Shown here: in pieces, positions 1-49,430 of the stretch | How the letters are laid out: each line of letters opens with the position of its first letter | Numbering within the stretch: the first letter of the stretch is position 1 | NCBI RefSeq assembly: GCF_004010195.1 | Contig: NC_057718.1 | Span: forward strand, 45,919,240 to 45,968,669 | Length of the DNA: 49,430 nt | Direction of reading: 5' to 3' | Source of the DNA: Chiloscyllium plagiosum | Lineage: Eukaryota | Program-made: the position numbers and the translations under genes | The notes under the pieces: generated by a model | The model's input: the letters and a program-made list of their open reading frames with translations, nothing else | Databases searched by the model: none | Told to the model about the DNA's origin: nothing

Positions 1-680
1 CAGGTTCATAGCTCCTTGAAAGTGGAGTCACAGGTGGATTGGATAGTGAAGAAGGTGTTTGGTATGCTTTCTTTTATTGGTCAGAGTATTGAGTACATGA
101 GTTGGGAGGTCATGTTGCGGCTGTACAGGACATTGGTTTGGCCACTGTTGGAATATTGCGTGCAATTCTGGTCTCCTTCCTATCGGAAAGATGTTGTGAA
201 ACTTGAAAGGGTTCAGAAAAGATTTACAAGGATTTTGCCAGGGTTGGAGGATTTGATCTAAAGGGAAGACTGAACAGGCTGGGGCTGTTTTCCCTGGAGA
301 GTCGGAGGCTGAGGGGCAAAATTATGAGGGGCATGGATAGGATAAATAAGCAAAGTCCTATCCCTGGGGTCAGGGAGTCCAGAACTAGAGGGCATAGGTT
401 TAGGGTGAGAGGGGAAAGATATAAAAGAGACCTAAGGGGAAACTTTTTCACGTAGAGGGTGGTACATGTATGGAATGAACTGCCAGAGGAAGTGGTGGAG
501 GCTGGTACAATTGCAACATTTAAGAGGCATTTCGATGGGTATATGAATAGGAAGGGTTTGGAGGGATATGGGCCGGGTGCTGTCAGGTGGGACTAGATTG
601 GGTTGGGATATCTGGTCAGCATGGACAGGTTGGACCGAAGCTTCTGTTTCCATGCTGTACATCTCTATGACTCTATAACT
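1..680 (+). mobile_element. CR1-clade LINE 3' end (ORF2 C-terminus + 3' UTR), continues upstream of the window
   Basis: ORF 16-261 contains LYRTLVWPLLEYCVQFWSP...LERVQKRFTR, typical of the CR1 ORF2 C-terminus; ends in a CTCTATGA-like short repeat tail. Confidence 0.92.
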
Positions 681-969
681 GATAACAGTTTCATGACACC
701 AATATGTAGACATATTTTCAGTCCCAGATTTATTAAAATAAGTTTAAATTCCAACAATTACCATGATGGGATTTTAACCAAAGCATTAGCCGGCATCTCA
801 CAATTATTATTCTATTTTGCATAATGACTGCACCATCTCCTTGATAATTGTGTAATCCTTTTATTTCTTTATACTATGTTTTTACTTCAATGGTTATCGA
901 TAGCTATGTTAGGAATGATGATTATTTACTTTATTTGTGCCACCATCACAAATGGTGACTTTTAAGGGG

Positions 970-1237
970 AGACAGTAATAATGCTATTAACCAGAGACCC
1001 AGTTATGGTAGATAACGAGGTATGGCAACTGGTGGAACGTAAATGCAATTAAGAAAATCTGAAATTGAAAGCTAGTATAAGTAATGATGATCAACAAACC
1101 ATCATCAATTGTAATAAAAACTTATTAGGTTCACTGATTCTCTAGAAGGAAATAAATCTGTTGACTTTACCTGGTTAAGTCTGTATATGACTCCAATTCC
1201 ACTGCATTGTGGGTGACTCTAACTATTCTCTAAGATG
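970..1237 (+). mobile_element. Old degraded SINE-like repeat, interrupted by the PLE composite (resumes at ~2793)
   Basis: GGTTCACTGATT...AAATCTG...TACCTGG...GACTCCA...GTGACTCT block resembles a common old elasmobranch SINE (from memory). Confidence 0.5.
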
Positions 1238-1513
1238 AGAAAGTGAGGTCTGCAGATGCTGGAGATCAGAGCTGGAAATGTGTTGCTGGAAAAGCGCAGC
1301 AGGTCAGGCAGCATCCAGGGAACAGGAGAATCGACGTTTCGGGCATAAGCCCTTCTTCAGGAATGGGGAAAGTTTGTCCAGCAGGCTAAGATAAAAGGTA
1401 GGGAGGAAGGACTTGGGGGAGGGGCGTCGGAAATGTGATAGGTGGAAAGAGGTCAAGGTGAGGGTGAAAGGTCAGACTGGGGTGGGGGCGGAGAGGGCGG
1501 GAAGAAGATTGCA

Positions 1514-2163
1514 AACTCCTCCTTGTGAACCTCAATCTTGTCTCGTCTGGTAGCCTGTATCTCAGTATTTACCTTGCCAACATTGTCTTTTTCTAGTGTG
1601 AATACTGATGAAAAATATTTTTTTAGCGCTTCCCCTATCTCCTCTGACTCCACGCACAACTTCCCACTACTATCCTTGATTGGCCCTAATCTTTCTGTAG
1701 TGATTCTTTTATTCCAGATATACCGATAGAAAGCCTTATGGTTTTCCTTGATCCTGTCTGCCAATGACTTGTCATATCTCCTCCTGGCTCCTCTTAACTG
1801 TTTCTTTAGGTGTTTCCTGATTAACCTGTAACTCTCAAGTGCCCTACCTGAGCCTTTATATCTCATCCTCCATAGGCCTTCTTCCTCTTGACTAGAGATT
1901 CACATTCTTTAGTAAACCAGGGCTCCCTTGCTTGACCACTTCCTCCCTGCCTGACAAGTACACATTTAACAAGGACCTGCAGTAGCTGTTTCTCGAATAA
2001 GCTCCACATTTCAATTGTGCCCATTCCCTGCAGTTCCCTTTCCCATCCTACGCATCCTAAATCTTGCCTTGCAACATAATTGCCTTTACCCCAGTTATAA
2101 TTCTTGCCCCGCGGTATATATCTATCCCTTTCCATCGCTAAAGTAAACATAGCCGAATTGTGG
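1514..2163 (-). mobile_element. Internal CR1/HER1 ORF2 fragment (endonuclease-RT linker)
   Basis: ORFs 1863-2186 and 1453-1866: NWGKGNY...EPWFTKE...IKENHKAFYRYI...GPIKDSSG...YFSSVFT. Confidence 0.9.
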
Positions 2164-2682
2164 TTAGGAAACCAACCTGCATGCACTGGACAAAAACTGA
2201 CCCATCTAAAGCACCCGGGGGAAGAAGATTGCAGGTTAGGAAGGCGGTGCTGGATTTGATGGATTTGACTGAGACAGGCTGGGGGGAGGGGGAATGAGGA
2301 AACTGGTGGAATCCGAGTTCATCCCTTGTGGTTGGAGGGTTCCTAGCCGGAAGATGAGGCGTTCTTCCTCCAACCGTGGTTTTGTTGTGGTCTGACGATG
2401 GAGGAGTCCAAAGACCTGCATATCCTTGGAGTGGGAGGGGGAATTGAAATGTTGAGCTACAGGGTGGTTGGGTTGGTTGGTCCGGGTGTCCCAGAGGAGT
2501 CAAATCCATCAAATTCAGCATCGCCTTCCTAACCTGAGATCTTCTTCCCGACCTCTCCGCCCCCACCCCAGTCTGATCTATCACCCTCACCTTGACCTCT
2601 TTCCACCTATCACATTTCCGATGCCCCTCTCCCAAGTCCCTCCTCCCTACCTTTTATCTTAGCCTGCTGGACAAACTTTCCC

Positions 2683-2722
2683 CATTCCTGAAGAAGGGCT
2701 TATGCCCGAAACGTCGATTCTC
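2683..2722 (+). ncRNA. Minimal type I hammerhead ribozyme motif (PLE family A); antisense copy at ~1328-1366
   Basis: CTGAAGA-A-GGGC TTAT GCCC-GAAAC-GTC: conserved core boxes, 4-bp stem II, palindromic ACGT helix III; helix I pairing is weak. Confidence 0.7.
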
Positions 2723-2945
2723 CTGTTCCCTGGATGCTGCCTGACCTGCTGCGCTTTTCCAGCAACACATTTCCAGCTTATTCTCTAAGATGGCCTGATA
2801 CAGCAAAGCAGTTTCCAATGCAACAACTGCTGACCTTACCATCAAAACCCACATCTCATCAAACAGAAATAAAATCTGCAACATATTATTTTATTTAAAA
2901 TAAGCTACTTAAGTTGATTTCAGAATCTTTCTAAGTTGTGCCAAG

Positions 2946-3162
2946 AGCTGTCATATTACCTGGAGATTAATGAACAAACGGGCTTTTTTTTAATGTTTTT
3001 TGACATATGAATGTAAGATATAGCATAAGATTCAAATTATTACAGCCCATAGTGAGAGTAAAAAATATGTCTGACTATTGTTTCCTTTTAATGTTTTGAT
3101 CCCAGTCTTATCTTTGTCAAGATATTTAGAATAGTGCAGGATATGGAAATCTTCAATGCAGC
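2946..3162 (+). repeat. ~210-bp diverged direct repeat, copy 1 (copy 2 at 5224-5424)
   Basis: Shared blocks CTGGAGATTAATGAACAAAC, ATTACAGCCCATAGTGAGAGTAAA, CAGGATATGGAAA.CTTCAATGCAGC. Confidence 0.9.
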
Positions 3163-16735: not shown

Positions 16736-16990
16736 AATGGAAGCCTTATATGAGACAGAAAAGAGATGGAGTGGTTTAGAGAACTTAGTCATGGGGAGAG
16801 GGAAATTCTGATCTGTGAAACGGGTTTAAGTATTTAGTGGACATCATGATGACTGCTGCTTCCTATCTCCTAGATTTGGAGGAAGGCTGGGCGTACTTGA
16901 TCTCTGGATGATTTTCCTTCTTTCACCTTTTGACCATTTTTTCTTGTGGCTGTCAGTTGAAACCTGGCAGTAGAGCCCAGTACACAAGAG

Positions 16991-17413
16991 GAGAAAGTGA
17001 GGACTGCAGATGCTGGAGATCAGAGCTGAAAATGTGTTGCTGGAAAAGCGCAGCAGGTCAGGCAGCATCCAAGGAGCAGGAGAATCGACGTTTCGGGCAT
17101 AAGCCTCACTGATTTCAAGGTAGGCACTTCTGGTTTTGCAGTATGCAACATACCACAATAGATTTGCATCCTTTGGATGAGTCATACTTTAATACTTCTC
17201 TATGACACTGAAATTGTTGCTTGAAAAGAATGTTCATTTGCTCTGTAATGAATTGCATTGCTTTGTGTGCTTGATTGTACTTGCATTCTGCTGACACCTG
17301 TGGGTTCTGCAATGATTCTTCATTCCTGAAGAAGGGCTTATGCCCGAAACGTCGATTCTCCTGCTCCTTGGATGCTGCCTGACCTGCTGCGCTTTTCCAG
17401 CAACACATTTTCA
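16991..17413. mobile_element. PLE family A inverted termini enclosing a 212-bp inverted copy of 18232-18443
   Basis: TSD CCCAGT(A/G)CACAAGAG at 16976-16990 and 17415-17429; the overlapping parts of the arms are identical; intact HHR core at 17326-17353. Confidence 0.92.
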
Positions 17414-18231: not shown

Positions 18232-18443
18232 CATTGCAGAACCCACAGGTGTCAGCAGAATGCAAGTACAATCAAGCACACAAAGCAATGCAATTCATTA
18301 CAGAGCAAATGAACATTCTTTTCAAGCAACAATTTCAGTGTCATAGAGAAGTATTAAAGTATGACTCATCCAAAGGATGCAAATCTATTGTGGTATGTTG
18401 CATAGTGCAAAACCAGAAGTGCCTACCTTGAAATCAGTGAGGC
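18232..18443 (+). repeat. Donor of the inverted copy at 17103-17314
   Basis: One mismatch seen in 212 bp; the ORF track shows the near-identical peptide on opposite strands. Confidence 0.95.
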
Positions 18444-42100: not shown

Positions 42101-44076
42101 CATCAAATATGGCAATCAAACTGGTAAAGATCATTCAACATAATTATTCAGAATCAATTACCAATTCTCAGATACAGAGAAGTCAATAGATGACGTCAAT
42201 TTGAAGAAGGTCCTGAGGAATAGAATACAGGAGATCAAAAACTGAATAGTGACAATGTGAGTGATTATTACACAGAAGACAAAGCTTTCAAATCAAAAGA
42301 TAAATTGTCCAATGTGCGTATTTGATGTCATCATCCAGAGTTGACTACTGAATGAATGGATGTGACAACTTTGGGGTGTTTAGGATAAGCTACCAGCAAA
42401 TTTAAATATTGATTGAATGTTCAGGATGATAACCGTTAAATGAGATCCATAGAATTGCAAAATGTGGAGAGTATGACAGCTGACAATGGGATTGGAAATG
42501 ACTGTTGATCATGTATTGACAAAAGATAGAACAAGAGGGCAAGCTTGCAGCTATAGTCTGGGCAGGCATTAAAGTGCAATAAAGGCCATAAATAAACAAT
42601 GAATAAAGACCAATTAATAGCTTGAGAATAAAACTAGAAAGAGTTTTATGATCATGATCGTGACATTTTGGGGGGGTGGGGGGTTCCAATAAATTTGAAA
42701 GCAAACTAATAAGAGAGGCAAAGCAAAGGAATAGTTGATAAGATTTTGGGGTTTTTCCTGATGTATCAAATAAAGACTACCATCTTTGTCACATAAGTGG
42801 ATTTGCACTGAAAAGATCCTTGCAGATGGGACGTATAAGGATTAGGAAAGTTCCTTGCTAAGAGTTTTGAAGAGAAATAACGTGATACAAATACTGGAGT
42901 GGATATTCCCATAGTTGGAAAAATAATCTTGAAAATCTTCTTAGCATTTTTGCCCACAGGTTCACAGTAGTGTGGATCAATCAACATAACTACTATACCT
43001 CTCCACGGCAAGATGTTTCTGAGAGAACTATTTCAGAAGTGACCAATGAGACAGTGGATGCCTATAGAACTGATGGAAACTTAATATATATTTCTATAGT
43101 TGCTGCTTCTAGGATGTGGTATTTTTCTGTGAGATCTGTTTTACTCCAAATGGATTCAACTCAAAGCAAACTCCACAATTTTTATTTGTGTTATAGAAGA
43201 AAGCATTCAGGCTTTTTCATGATGGTTGTTCATTTCTTACATGGTGATACTGTGAAATTTGAGTCATAGGTTATCAATAAGAATAGAGTAAAAAATAAAA
43301 TTGGAAGTCATCCTCATGGGTGTCTTAAATATGTTGGTTTCTATATTAAGTGGAGTAAATCTGAAATAACTTTAAATCACCAGATGTATTCAGAGAGTGT
43401 TTCTCCCATCTTAGTCAATCATACTAAGTCTCACAGAATGATGATATACCTAAAAAGAACAGACAGAGAATTTGCTCTATTGAACAGGCTGGAAGCTCTG
43501 ACTAGACCAGATGCTAGATTTTGCTGTATTGGAGTTAAGTGTGAAGAAGAAGCGTTTTAAAGTGGCAAATGTTTTAAGGACAAATAAAACAGGAAAAGAA
43601 AACAATTTGGACAAAAGACCCCAACCACAGGTGATTCAAAACACATGAATCCAGTCACTTTTCAAAATGTTTCACATGTTAATCTTCCTGTTGGATATTC
43701 TTGTGTTACTGGTTTGTAATGTTTCTTGATGGACGTGGGAAATGTTGTCTTAGGAAGTTGAGAAGGTAAAAATAGGATAAAATATTTTAGTTGTTGATAT
43801 GCAGATGCTTGTGGAGTAAATGGATAAAGGATTTTATTTGTTAAATATTTTAAATGAAATTTTTTGCTAGGGTTGTACTGAAAATTGAATACCGATTTAA
43901 TGTTATGTGGAGAATTATTTCTCTTGAATAATGCAAATTCAACTAAAATGGTGAGTGAAAAAGGGTTTTCGATTTACCTTGCTGACTTGAAACAAATGCA
44001 AGATAGAAAGAAAATCTCGAAAATTAAATGCGTGAATGTAAATGATCAATTATCAATTGTTTGATTGTTTCCAAGA

Positions 44077-44160
44077 GGCGTGGTGCTGTGTGAAGCACAG
44101 CAGGTCAGGCAGCATCTGAGTAGCAGGAGAATCGACGTTTTGGGCATAAGCACTTTCACC
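44077..44160 (-). mobile_element. Solo PLE family A-related fragment
   Basis: CAGCAGGTCAGGCAGCATCTGAG..GCAGGAGAATCGACGTTT; TSD TTGTTT(T)CCAAGA. Confidence 0.85.
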
Positions 44161-44346
44161 TTGTTTTCCAAGAAGAAATGCATGTAAAAATAACTGTTTG
44201 TGATCCTTAGAGGAGGGTGAATTTACAATATAATGCGTTATGCAGAGTATTGAAATTTTTAAATTAATTTATTTTGAAATTTTGGTTATGCATATTAATT
44301 CTTAATGTTAGAGGGAGAGAAGGAAATCTGTTAATTGTATATTAAT

Positions 44347-45315
44347 TGTTGTAGTTCTGTTCGCCGAGCTGGGAATTTGTGTTGCAGACATTTTGTCCCC
44401 TGTCTAGGTGACATCTTCAGTGCTTGTGACCCTCCTGTGAAGCGCCTCTGTGATCTTTCCTCCGGCATTTGTAGTCGTTTGAATCTGCCGCTTCCGGTTG
44501 TCAGTTTCAGCTGTCCGTTGCAGTGGTTGATATATTGGGTCTAGGTCAATGTGCATATTGATTGAATCTGTGGATGAGTGTCATGCCTCTAGGAATTCCC
44601 TGGCTGTTCTCTGTTTGGCTTGTCCTATAATAGTAGTGTTGTCCCAGTCGAATTCATGTTGCTTGTCGTCTGTGTGTGTGGCTACTAAGGATAGCTGGTC
44701 GTGTCGTTCATGGCTAGTTGGTGTTCATGGATGCAGATCGTTAGCTGTCTTCCTGTTTGTCCTATGTAGTGTTTTGTACAGTCCTTGCATGGGATTTTGT
44801 ACACTACATTTTGTTCAATGTAGTGTACAAAATCCCATGCAAGGACTGTACAAAACACTACATAGGACAAACAGGAAGACAGCTAACGATCCGCATCCAT
44901 GAACACCAACTAGCCACGAACGACACTTCCAGCTATCCTTAGTAACCACACACACAGATGACAAGCAACATGAATTCGACTGGGACAACACTACTATTAT
45001 AGGACAAGCCAAACAGAGAACAGCCAGGGAATTCCTAGAGGCCTGGAACTCATCCACAGATTCAATCAATAAGCATGTCGATCTGGACCCGATATACCGA
45101 CACTGCAACTGACAGCTGGAACTGACAACTGGAAGCGGCAGATTCAAACCACTATAAATGCCGGAGGAAACATCACAGAAGCACTTCACAGGAGGCTTCC
45201 AAGCACTGAGGATGTCACCTAGACAGGGGACAAAATGTCTGCAACACAAATTCCCAGCTCGGCGAACAGAACCACAACAACGAGCACCCGAGCTACAAAT
45301 CTTCTCACAAACTTT
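44347..45315. mobile_element. PLE family B fold-back (palindromic) insertion encoding a GIY-YIG endonuclease fragment
   Basis: NVVYKIPCKDCTKHYIGQTGR GIY-YIG motif on both strands; arms 44347-44810 and 44817-45280; TSD TATTAATTGT at 44340-44349 and 45319-45328. Confidence 0.93.
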
Positions 45316-45793
45316 TTTTATTAATTGTACCATAGTGGTGGGTATTAACTGGGGATTCACTCAGGTCCCCATAAATAGGTACAGATTAAACTGTGATGGT
45401 TGGGGTTAGGAGATCTGTGCTTGTAATTTTAAGTCTAGAAGACAAAAGTAAACACTTGTATAGATTAGTTCCAATTGTGTCCTTCACACATATCAACTTT
45501 CTATAGAAACATAGATAATAGGAGCTGGAGTAGGCCATTCAGTCCTTCGAGCCTGTGTTGCCATTCAATATGTTCATGGTTGATCATCCAACTCAATACC
45601 CTGTTCCTGCTTTCTCTCTGTACCATTTAGTCTCTAAAAAACATAGCTAACTCCTTCTTGAAAACATTCAATGTTTTGGCCTCCATTGCTTTCTGTAGCA
45701 GAGAATTACATAGGCTCATCATTCTCTGGATGAAGAAATGTATTTGCATCTCATACCTAAGTGGCCTAGCCTGTATCCTTAGGCTCTGGTTTT

Positions 45794-45929
45794 TAGATCA
45801 GAGTGGTGCTGGAAAAGCACAGCAGGTCAGGCAGCATCCGAGGAGCAGGAAAATCGAAGTTTCGGGCTTTTCCAGCACCACTCTGATCTGAACTCTGGTT
45901 TCCAGCATTTTGAGTCCTCACTTTTGCCT
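45794..45929. mobile_element. Small fold-back PLE (family A-related) without cargo
   Basis: AGATCAGAGTGGTGCTGGAAAAGC inverted at 45866-45889; TSD TTAGGCTCT at 45779-45787 and 45932-45940. Confidence 0.85.
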
Positions 45930-47020
45930 CTTTAGGCTCTTGTTCCGAGTCCGGACTCACTGGTCATTGAGAACATCCTTCTTCCATTTTCTCTGTCCGG
46001 TTCTGTTAGAATTTTATAAATTGAACTCCAGTGAATATCATCCGAAATGATCCAATTTCTTTTTAGACATCCTCTGACCATCCCAGGAATCAGTCTGGTG
46101 ACTTTGTTGCATTCCCTCCAAAGTCAGAACATCCTGATTCAAATAAGGAGACCGACCTGCACACAATACTCCAAGTCTGATCCCACCAAGGCCCTGCACA
46201 ATTCCAGCAAGACATCCCTGCTCCTATTCTTGAATCTTCTCACTATGAAGGCCAACATGCCTTTCGCTTTCATTACCACTTGCTGAATCTGCACACTTGG
46301 CTTCAGTGACTGGTGTATAAGGACACCCAGGTCTCATGGTACTTCTCCCTTTCCTAATCTATCGGCATGCAGATAATAATCTTTCTTCCTGTTTTTTATA
46401 TACCAAAGCAGATAACCTCACATTTATCGGCCATGTTTTGCTCATTCAATTGACTTGTCCACACTATACTGAAGTATCTCTGCATCCTCCTCAGTTCACT
46501 CTCCACCCTGCTTTGTGTTGTCTGCAAACTTGAAGATATTATGTTTACTCACCTCATCTAAATCTTTAATAGAGAACATGAATAGTTGGGGTCCAAGCAC
46601 TGATCCCTGCACTACCCCACTAGTCACTGCCTGCCATTTTGAAAAAGACCTGTTTATTTGTATTTCGTTGTTTCTTGTCTGCCAGCCACTTCTGTATTCA
46701 AGTCAGAGTGCTACCTGATTCCATGCACTTTAACCTTACAAGCTAATATCCTATATGGAACCTTATCAAAAGACTTCTGAGTAAACCACATCCACGAGCT
46801 CCTCCTTGACAATTCTACTAGTTATAGCCTCAAAAAATGCCAGTAGATTCATCAAGCACAATTTGCTTTTTGTAAATCCATGCTGACTCTGTCTGATCCT
46901 GCCATTGTTTTCCAAGTGTTTTTCTATTAGTTTATTTATAATAGACTGTAGTATTTCAGTTTCTATCAGTTAGGATATCAGTTTCTATGCTGTCTTATTT
47001 TCTGTCTAACTCCTTTTTTT

Positions 47021-47307
47021 CAAAGTCAGAAATCACACAACACCAGCTTATAGCCCAACAGGTTTATTTGAAATCACAGGTTTTTGGAGCACTGCCAAGG
47101 GAGAAGTACCATGAGACCTGGGTGTCCTTATACACCAGTCACTGAAGCCAAGTGTGCAGATTCAGCAAGTGGTAATGAAAGCGAAAGGCATGTTGGCCTT
47201 CATAGTGAGAAGATTCAAGAATAGGAGCAGGGATGTCTTGCTGGAATTGTGCAGCACTGTGACTTCCGACTTTGCCCACCCCAGTCCAACACAGGAACTT
47301 CCACATC
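47021..47307. mobile_element. PLE family C inverted termini enclosing a 158-bp inverted copy of 46194-46351
   Basis: Left arm CAAAGTCAGAAATCACA... versus right arm TGTGACTTCCGACTTTG + tail; TSD TCC(T6-7)CAAA at 47011-47024 and 47306-47318. Confidence 0.82.
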
Positions 47308-48599
47308 CTTTTTTCAAATAGTGGGGTTATGTTAGGTTCCCTCCAGTCTATATAAACTGTTCCAGAGTCTTTAGAATCTTGAAAGATAGCCATCAATGCA
47401 TCCACTATTGCTAGGCCCATGTTTTTGTTGCCACTCCTGGAATAGAAATTGGGAACTTATAGCTGATGAGACAGCACTTGACTGGTCTTTTATGAGATCC
47501 AGCCAGATCCAGTGGTGGAAAGCTAAACCAGTTGTCCAATATATCCTTTCAAATCTAAACTTAAGGGAATACAGATGAGGGTAATAGAAGAGGGAATCAG
47601 TGAGGGTAAAAGAGAATATTACTGAGGATGTACAGATCTAATGTAGAAGAGGGTGTGGCTGAACAAATCTGTAGCTGCAGAAATGCTGTGGCAAATGGCA
47701 GAGGGAAAGATCAGTAAAAGAAAACTGCAGTAATCATTGGAGATAAATGTATTGGTCATGCTGGAGCTCCACTTCGAAACACCAAAAATAGGTCAGGCCA
47801 GTGTGTATCATTCACAAGTTTTACTGGATTTTTCCATTCTTGGACAGGATGAAAGGATACACAATTAGGATTGGACAGTGCAGTTTTGTGTGAACTGGTA
47901 GATAGCTTTTCCTTAGAGCGGATGTAGAGGAGGTTGTGTTGGAAATTGAAAGGGATGGAGGGAAAAGCGATAAAAGAACCGGATCAGAGATGGGTTATGT
48001 ATGATTGATGCCATGGGATTTGTGTATTGAGGTGGTAAAATTCAGGTTAACGACAGATTTCAGATTCGTTTCATTCATATCAGCGACAGAAATGATTCGC
48101 AGCATCAGTTTTAGCACTGTGCAGTATTCCATTAGCAATAAAGCTCATGAACCTACTCCCATTCATAACCAATCCCTGCATTATCAAATACAACTGTTTT
48201 TTGCAATGCAACTTAAAATTTGACTGCCAAGCCCACAGAATATGAATTTACTTTACAGATGTAAGTGTGATATTTTAACAAAGGCTTTTCCAAAATCAAT
48301 CTATGCTGTGAAGTGCAGCAGACCTAGACTTGCATCAGTAAGTCAGATTTTTATTCAATGGTGCTCTGCAGAGTTGAATATCCCAGAGTGTTTTGTGTCT
48401 GTCCATTTGATTACCCAGTGGAAGACCTCCAGGGCAAATTTTATGTAAGCCTGGAATAATCCGCTGTAGTTTTTCAAAAATTAGATTTAGCTTTTGAGAA
48501 GCTTGGTCTTGGATAAAATTTGCAACAGGCCTGTAAGAGAAACTGATGAAGAGAAAGATAAAAGTCAGACTGTTGCGGGGATATATACTTGTCTTTTTG

Positions 48600-48835
48600 T
48601 TATGCTTTTCAACGATGTCATGCACTGGAAGACCTGGCACAAACAGCAAAACGAAGGATAAACACATGGAAAGGAGGAACAGAAGAATAATTTACTATTT
48701 CATCAGATTGATCTTCACATCCTCCTTGAGAAGCCATGTCAGAACCAGTCTGCATTGGTGGGGAAAGTATCAAACAAAGCTGCAAACCAGTGCTACAAGA
48801 CTTTTGCTGATCTGATGAGGATTGTCAAGGTAACA
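48600..48835 (+). pseudogene. Possible Myb/SANT-like (Harbinger accessory gene) remnant
   Basis: ALEDLAQ..KRR and VSNKAANQCYKTFADLMRIVK followed by a GTAA donor resemble the QCRKKFNDL end of Myb/SANT-like domains. Confidence 0.4.
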
Positions 48836-48852
48836 CACCAGCTGTACGATCT

Positions 48853-48975
48853 TAAAAGCAAATACTGCAGATACTGGAAATCTGAAATGAAAAGAGAAAG
48901 TACTGGACAAACTCTGCAGGATCAAAACAGGAGTCATGCCAGTCTTGAAACATTGACACCATTTCTCTCTTTGCA
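48853..48975. mobile_element. Old PLE family D terminus, possibly fold-back
   Basis: AAAAGCAAATACTGCAGATACTGGAAATCTGAAAT, then a sense-like GAGTCAT...TTGAAACATTGAC. Confidence 0.5.
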
Positions 48976-49009
48976 CTGTACAAAAAAGTCATCATTTTGC
49001 ATTCAAGTT

Positions 49010-49430
49010 AAGGAAGGTGACTGAGGTGTCAGTGGGGCACTTTGGGGCCAGCGACCATAATTCTATTCGTTTTAAAATAGTGATGGAAACGGATAGACCA
49101 GATCTAAAAGTTGAAGTTCTAAATTGGAGAAAGGCCAATTTTGACGGTATTAGGCAAGAACTTTCAAAAGCTGATTGGAGGCAGATGTTCACAGGTAAAG
49201 GATGGCTGGAAAATGGGAAGCCTTCAGAAATGAGATAACAAGAATCCAGAGAAAGTATATTCCTGTCAGGGTGAAAGGGAAGGCTGGTAGGTATAGGGAA
49301 TGCTGGATGACTAAAGAAATTGAGGGCTTGGTTAAGAAAAAGAAGAAAGCATATGTCAGGTATAGAGAGGATCGATCGAGTGAATCCTTAGAAGAGTATA
49401 AAGAAAGTAGGAGTATACTTAAGAGGGAAA
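49010..49430 (+). mobile_element. 5'-truncated CR1 ORF2 fragment running off the window
   Basis: SDHNSIRF (end of APE endonuclease)...LNWRKANFDGIRQEL. Confidence 0.92.

Follow-up and report, generated by a model that had tools for sequence, protein, structure and literature searches.

How does a stretch of DNA come to lie, inverted, between the two ends of a mobile element, at a short distance from its own original, and when does it get there? The question is raised by a locus at 47 kb in the window (the whole stretch of DNA analysed here, 49,430 nucleotides from Chiloscyllium plagiosum, organism A in what follows), where positions 47097–47254 are the reverse complement of positions 46194–46351, identical at 158 letters of 158. 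An earlier, sequence-only reading had seen there the capture of local DNA by a Penelope-like element, while allowing that the cargo may postdate the insertion, through break repair, or owe its identity to conversion. We argue that the copy is, in all likelihood, a repair-mediated duplication, by which an older Penelope-like insertion was patched at its central junction, on the branch that leads to the window's species from its split with organism B.

The identity between donor and copy, already noticed on first reading, stops sharply at either edge, and the flanks beyond are unrelated. The two are separated by 745 nt, where the distance had been put at about 750 bp upstream. The donor sits, as had also been recognized, within a degraded element with its RT read on the minus strand, which we take to be CR1 from its motifs. 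The frame adjoining the donor (46499–46702) matches Pfam RVT_1 at E 0.008, under the curated cut-off, and Pfam gives no match for the donor frame itself. That the local CR1 would be the unique best match is borne out: in G000, the genome assembly searched (3.56 Gb in 101,977 contigs), only the two window copies match at 100%, and the next, among the best 40 of 2286 candidates scored, reaches 85% over 152 nt. At its own ends the copy is flanked by bases foreign to the donor, one on the left, which we infer to be either filler or a substitution, and three on the right (Table 1). A 7-mer, AGCACTG, is present twice, at 47088–47094, the left break end, and at 47253–47259. No microhomology is seen at either donor edge when scored with the present flanks, and inspection of the sequence finds no poly(A/T) tract at the ends of the insert.

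Table 1. Features of the 47-kb locus, in window coordinates
Feature	Position	Strand	Basis or remark
Donor, 158 nt within the degraded CR1-like element that hosts the insertion	46194..46351	+	other repeat copies cross both edges
Left TSD copy, 7-T run	47011..47024	+	overlaps first 4 nt of left arm
Left tail-less family-C Penelope-like arm	47021..47095	+	also present in organism B (X5 record 30)
One non-donor base	47096..47096	+	organism B contig alignment ends at 47095
Acceptor, inverted donor copy, 158/158	47097..47254	-	without counterpart in organism B orthologue
3-nt non-donor filler, completes 7-nt repeat	47255..47257	+	repeat of left break end
Right family-C arm with tail	47258..47307	-	arm comparison with family copies
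Right TSD copy, 6-T run	47306..47318	+	sequence comparison

The frame around the copy is a pair of inverted ends of a family that we name C, within a TSD, just as had been claimed; the TSD motif is TCC-T-run-CAAA, with 7 T in one copy vs 6 in the other. Likewise, the count of 2 differences over the 17 nt where the arms overlap proves correct; in the empty form the arms overlap by these 17 nt only, about 70 nt apart. With its inverted truncated arms, its tail at one end and its TSD, this stub has the structure of EN+ Penelope-like insertions, for which the accessible parts of PMC8557442, PMC3846280 and PMC11167929 describe inverted pLTRs plus a one-end tail of 30–40 nt. The arms were compared with family-C copies from a 1.74-Mb genomic sample, 77 for the left arm and 29 for the right. 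The left arm has 4 private changes at 75 scored positions and the right arm 5 at 50, making 9 nearly private changes over 125 positions; 9/75 and 8/50 positions, respectively, differ from the family majority. The best other genomic copies reach 93–94% for the left arm and, over 49–54 nt, 91–94% for the right.

Is the copy present in the organism, or only in its assembly? A gap at a hard-to-sequence fold-back might have been closed with mis-placed local reads, and perfect identity is the expected product of such gap filling. G000, with its many contigs, has 37,919 N in the first 1,000,000 sampled bases, and in several of its inverted pairs N occupies the centre. Such an artefact is countered by Logan contigs from organism A (samples S9, S8 and S2, from two studies). 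One of them (X16 record 16) bridges 47254|47255 without a difference, with 32 letters on one side and at least 86 on the other, and passes our 31-letter bridging rule. Two more (X15 record 6 and X2 record 23) cover 47225–47288, again with 0 differences, with 34 letters on the far side and 30 on the copy side, one below the rule. X2 record 22 is exactly 47097–47140, at a depth of 47.9 vs 24.4–24.6 alongside, and X15 record 5 stops exactly at 47254, at a depth of 46.3: depth doubled with exact copy edges is as expected of two copies. The read support asked of the junctions is therefore there for the right one, seen in three samples; for the left one, 47096|47097, no bridge is found among the contigs listed, which we do not take as evidence of absence. 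One of the two studies could be the source of the assembly, not both, and their junction contigs refute an artefact for the right junction; at most, collapse may have contributed to the perfect 158/158, and that the copy was created by the assembly is scarcely credible. Two donor contigs, X1 (46308–46531) and X15 (46304–46477), pass the right edge of the donor unbroken and so imply either a variant near 47114 or, for sample S1, absence of the copy. Within the duplicated sequence other individuals differ at one or two sites (X15 at 47153 and within 47179–47239; X1 record 7), so that 158/158 describes the haplotype of this assembly, or a collapse of near-identical copies.

The order of events is told by an empty orthologue. 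One contig of organism B spans the site fully (X5 record 30, 326 nt), aligning with 189 letters to 46889–47095 and with 127 to 47258–47384; between them B has 10 letters, against 162 in the window. The comparison of orthologues with and without cargo that had been called for thus finds the stub in B without the 158-nt copy. Two further contigs fit, without being proof: X6 record 30, from another study of organism B (64 nt), ends at 47095 with 16 unaligned letters, and X10 record 14, from organism C, ends at 47270 with 31. The X6 donor contig of organism B runs through the donor edge. Age points the same way, with 9 private changes in 125 letters of arm vs 0 in 158 of copy (Fisher p 5e-4); were arms and copy equally old, the probability of 0/158 would be about 4e-11. 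Because B lacks the copy and because of this age gap, we conclude that the copy arose after the insertion and was not captured at integration. The suggestion that the cargo may postdate the insertion is in this way supported, while "capture" by the element, as the event had been titled, does not agree with a stub free of cargo in B and a copy far younger than its arms. How much later may be judged from the divergence between A and B, 29/1238 letters over six X5 pieces (two pieces with 9/72 and 7/68 differences, probably other CR1 copies, were left out). At that rate the probability of 0/158 is 0.024, somewhat low for an event at the A–B split, hence either the event came late in the lineage of A or near-identical copies were merged; a late event is likely.

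The scar suggests how the patch might have been made. A double-strand break would have opened within about 10 nt of the arm junction. A resected 3′ end would then have annealed to CR1 745 nt upstream, in opposite orientation, be it on its own chromatid, on the sister or on the homologue, and a host polymerase would have copied 158 nt before releasing its template, whether by SDSA or by a microhomology-mediated template switch. The ends would have rejoined with about 10 nt lost and 1 + 3 nt of filler gained, the 3 nt coming perhaps from another short jump in which the left end was copied again, as the 7-nt repeat would have it. In this scar the 10 letters of B are replaced, with 1 and 3 non-donor bases at the sides, and it is presumptive which letters were deleted and which kept. 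To judge from it, repair of the site would have been of the SDSA type. The RT of the element is not needed for such a patch, a non-coding repeat within a repeat that is probably neutral.

The 47-kb event is real and belongs, in all likelihood, to a class described in 2009, the repair-mediated duplications (RDs) of Pace et al. According to the accessible text of that work (PMC2671141), these have a mean length of 162 bp (median 147) and a mean distance to the donor of 1.2 kb, with deletions of 1–15 nt and filler of 1–68 nt. They are inserts, 50 bp long or more, that break up a transposable element, as the 158 nt do between family-C arms; they have a single donor at a distance above 50 bp and below 5 kb, in agreement with the 745 nt of our locus; they show a small deletion and filler, no poly(A) and an unchanged donor; and they are lineage-specific with an empty orthologue, identical pairs being the youngest events. 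Unlike most RDs, the present copy shows, with the present flanks, no microhomology at the donor edges, a feature also missing in 8 of 39 proximal RDs, and its host, a Penelope-like junction, stands in a genome type outside their survey. Orientation statistics are not given in the accessible text. The event also resembles the germline MMBIR-type templated insertions (MMB-TI) of Osia et al. (2021), where, in the part accessible (PMC8421209), the insert is copied from a nearby template, which may be inverted, and sometimes in several jumps. A second short jump would account for the 7-nt repeat at the right junction. Most MMB-TI junctions have at least 1 bp of microhomology, which at 47 kb is scorable only with the letters since deleted.

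Are local copies common in this genome, and do they gather at Penelope-like junctions? As background we sampled 1,740,491 non-N bases in 180 stretches, each of 10 kb: 20 adjoin the window, and 160 were taken at round coordinates on 26 chromosomes; the satellite stretches L078 and L204 were dropped. A filter asking for at least 50 nt at 85% identity or more, a gap of 300–3000 and a best hit elsewhere below 75% of the local score yields 17 candidate local duplicates over the 1.74 Mb, of which 9 are inverted and 8 direct, without orientation bias. The inverted pairs inspected differ mostly by transitions, as do aged real copies. The gaps span 618–1299 nt for inverted copies (L049, L050, L056, L093, L097, L107, L109, L182, L197) vs 325–2762 nt for direct ones. 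The acceptor is distinguishable via interrupted repeats in L045, L049, L109 and L115, the last of which failed the score filter of the background set; the others are candidates. This density, 8–10 per Mb with a looser filter and another pipeline, greatly exceeds the 0.08–0.65 RDs per Mb of TE in the text accessible of PMC2671141.

None of the 17 background duplicates lies at a Penelope-like junction. Beyond the window, 159 inward-facing end pairs were screened for foreign local copies, inverted and at least 50 nt long, and none contained one. The conclusion drawn from 0/159, that there is no link to Penelope ends, was overturned by a targeted search of family A, described below: 107 of the 159 pairs have at least 1300 nt on both sides, and 0/107 fits a rate of 0.8%. 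A 48-nt direct copy, in L194, comes from just past its own arm. Within the RT region of a Penelope-like element, away from junctions, lies a 96-nt inverted copy (L115:4159–4254) with its donor 568 nt downstream. Local duplicates are also denser within 100 kb of the window (L045, L049, L050, L051, L056; 5 in 195 kb vs 12 in 1.55 Mb, p 0.034, the two copies of the window itself being excluded), and it is possible that they cluster regionally there.

The targeted search looked for family-A junctions cut at one point, with spacers either below 70 nt or of 70–300 nt. There are 892 matches of the former kind (a few counted on both strands) and 27 of the latter, at 26 places, one of which, the 17-kb event of the window, served as positive control. 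We examined 11 of the other 25 places, picked by eye for a spacer whose first 80 letters are not element-derived. Seven hold a local copy of 58–258 nt, the spacer starting at 3017 in the oriented locus, with donors 0.4–2.1 kb away. Three copies are inverted, with donors 736 nt upstream (L222), 1014 nt downstream (L224) and 443 nt upstream (L229); four are direct, with donors 612 nt downstream (L221, tail placed by eye), 2126 nt upstream (L223), 1417 nt downstream (L227) and 409 nt upstream (L228, where about 11 nt more are inserted within the copy). Inversion is thus not required. In L225, a locus that includes 2798 N, no local donor was found; L226 and L230 were rejected as each being, by eye, two separate insertions, and L231 as having an element-internal spacer. 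The rate is 7 of about 918 junctions, 0.76% or about 1 in 130, whereas a 20-nt target would, at the density of the background, give 0.18 cases, an enrichment of about 39-fold (Poisson p 1e-9) for one family, one cut point and one spacer window, over a rough background. For family A, this count supports the wider idea that local copies accumulate at Penelope-like junctions, and enrichment at young junctions is very probable. N gaps stand at the centre of inverted Penelope-like pairs in L069, L107, L110, L140 and L203, so that this assembly probably shows less junction cargo than there is. No published report of such an enrichment was found in the literature searched, without most subscription papers.

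The same seven cases dispose of a rule. At 47 kb, with the tail on the right arm, the donor is on the tail-less side, as it is at 17 kb; the sequence-only reading had placed both donors on that side. In the independent cases, by contrast with the rule proposed from these two, the donor is on the tail-less side in only 2 of 7 (L224 and L227; p 0.45 vs one half). As to age, family-A arms differ at 11 of 451 nt over six cases, and the cargo is 97–100% identical to its donor in 5 of 7. The 17-kb event (16986–17413, donor 18232–18443) has an inverted copy at 211/212, family-A arms at 79/79 and a TSD at 14/15. These figures would fit capture at or soon after integration in the seven cases and at 17 kb, where the ages, unlike those of the 47-kb event, could be those of a copy taken up as the element inserted. 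The best model for them would be that of L1 ends in the accessible part of PMC11702581, where near-site genomic DNA is copied into the retrotransposon junction, an outcome ascribed to break-end processing; unlike those L1 cases, which occur during integration, the 47-kb event came later. Elsewhere in the window, a 690-nt CR1-like spacer (1516–2205) lies within a family-A inverted pair (1232–2778), and the window and the fetched stretches hold no near-identical donor for it (best 80%).

Might the 47-kb copy, too, have entered with its element? It would have been brought in by a template jump at the 5′ junction, during target-primed reverse transcription, gene conversion would later have kept it identical to its donor, and B would have lost it. 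Such a capture agrees with what is seen at 17 kb and in most of the seven family-A cases; near-site templated DNA is reported for L1 in the part accessible of PMC11702581, and host DNA lies between pLTRs of rotifer Penelopes, in Adineta vaga (PMC3846280, as far as accessible). For the 47-kb event the B contig, with stub and without cargo, largely refutes it, for it demands conversion of exactly the whole 158 nt and loss in B, probably in C too. Gene conversion, put forward earlier to explain the identity, meets the same demand of a loss in these organisms. Deletion between the AGCACTG repeats, by which an old cargo might have vanished from B, leaves no extra letters, yet B has 10 that A lacks. 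Family-C arms, too, commonly extend for 10 letters more, up to where the sequence resembles the beginning of the inverted arm, and B therefore probably shows the original junction. We hold capture at integration to be very improbable here. Published captures between pLTRs (PMC8557442, PMC3846280, PMC11167929) are, in the parts accessible, neither traced to a donor at 0.4–2 kb nor shown to follow insertion, unlike the present copy, which is far younger than its arms.

With repair of a later break as the preferred reading, the cause of the break is still to be weighed. The element itself may be responsible: an active relative may supply the endonuclease that cuts the old inverted junction anew, or the junction may break as a fragile fold-back; this refines the explanation by repair and does not exclude it. 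The break lies within about 10 nt of the junction, in a class of sites that, in young family-A members, is enriched for local copies (7/918 vs 0.18 expected), a coincidence that chance alone explains only loosely. Re-cutting would be possible, to go by an experiment in vitro in which, according to the accessible text of PMC11167929, purified PAc protein cuts both strands of its own ORF–pLTR-junction target. In that text, however, the target preferred by PAc is AT-rich, and the 47-kb junction is not; arms with 17 nt of overlap at a distance of about 70 nt make a poor hairpin; and the divergences of family-A arms and cargo are of the same order, so that the enrichment can belong wholly to the time of insertion. 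About 42 background copies are expected by chance, on a rough count, within 20 nt of inverted junctions genome-wide, and no special cause is therefore required for the 47-kb event. A break caused by the element appears unlikely. The whole claim, that Penelope-like inverted junctions are a lasting hot spot for local DNA, with old stubs re-broken or re-cut above chance, is likewise doubtful. Were it true, the genome would hold of the order of a thousand datable fossils of Penelope-like 5′-end sealing, and at 47 kb we would be looking at a junction broken a second time, for which an empty orthologue is at hand.

Taken alone, the 47-kb event is a probably neutral scar that matters little, and the junction enrichment is the more interesting part of the results. 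The event carries a warning: when a local copy stands between Penelope-like arms, it was not necessarily placed there at integration, as here the orthologue gives a later date. The enrichment provides a first rate for local copies at Penelope-like junctions. The completion of Penelope-like integration and the formation of inverted ends are called undefined in the accessible parts of PMC8557442 and PMC11167929, and a genome-wide set of junctions dated by orthologues would make the question of end formation testable.

Finally, the host family deserves a comment. Family C has a Penelope-like build. Longer copies (L209, L177, L115) have GIY-YIG-like frames inward of their ends, for which Pfam gives no match at E 0.1 in any of the three; such a frame matches the family-B frame of the window at 41% over 37 aa (E 2e-05), the latter being itself only a weak Pfam GIY-YIG, and PDB 2wsh, Endonuclease II, weakly (E 0.15). 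Rfam finds no hammerhead in 44000–49430 or in six family-C loci, the stub itself ending before the place of one, and its scans return only sub-threshold microRNA-hairpin matches on fold-backs; in fuller family-C copies we see by eye what we take to be a motif like the hammerhead core. The family-B element forms a fold-back at 44346–45315, 936 nt at 92.5%, with a GIY-YIG-like frame in its arms (Pfam E 0.013, under cut-off). Around 1470–1600 in L035, L036, L038, L039 and L040, all five on different contigs, an identical flank adjoins the family-C arm; L038 and L039 (C15 and C5) share the same sequence onward, both becoming N from 2300. Such sharing is possibly that of mis-placed duplicated assembly sequence, or of a larger mobile unit.
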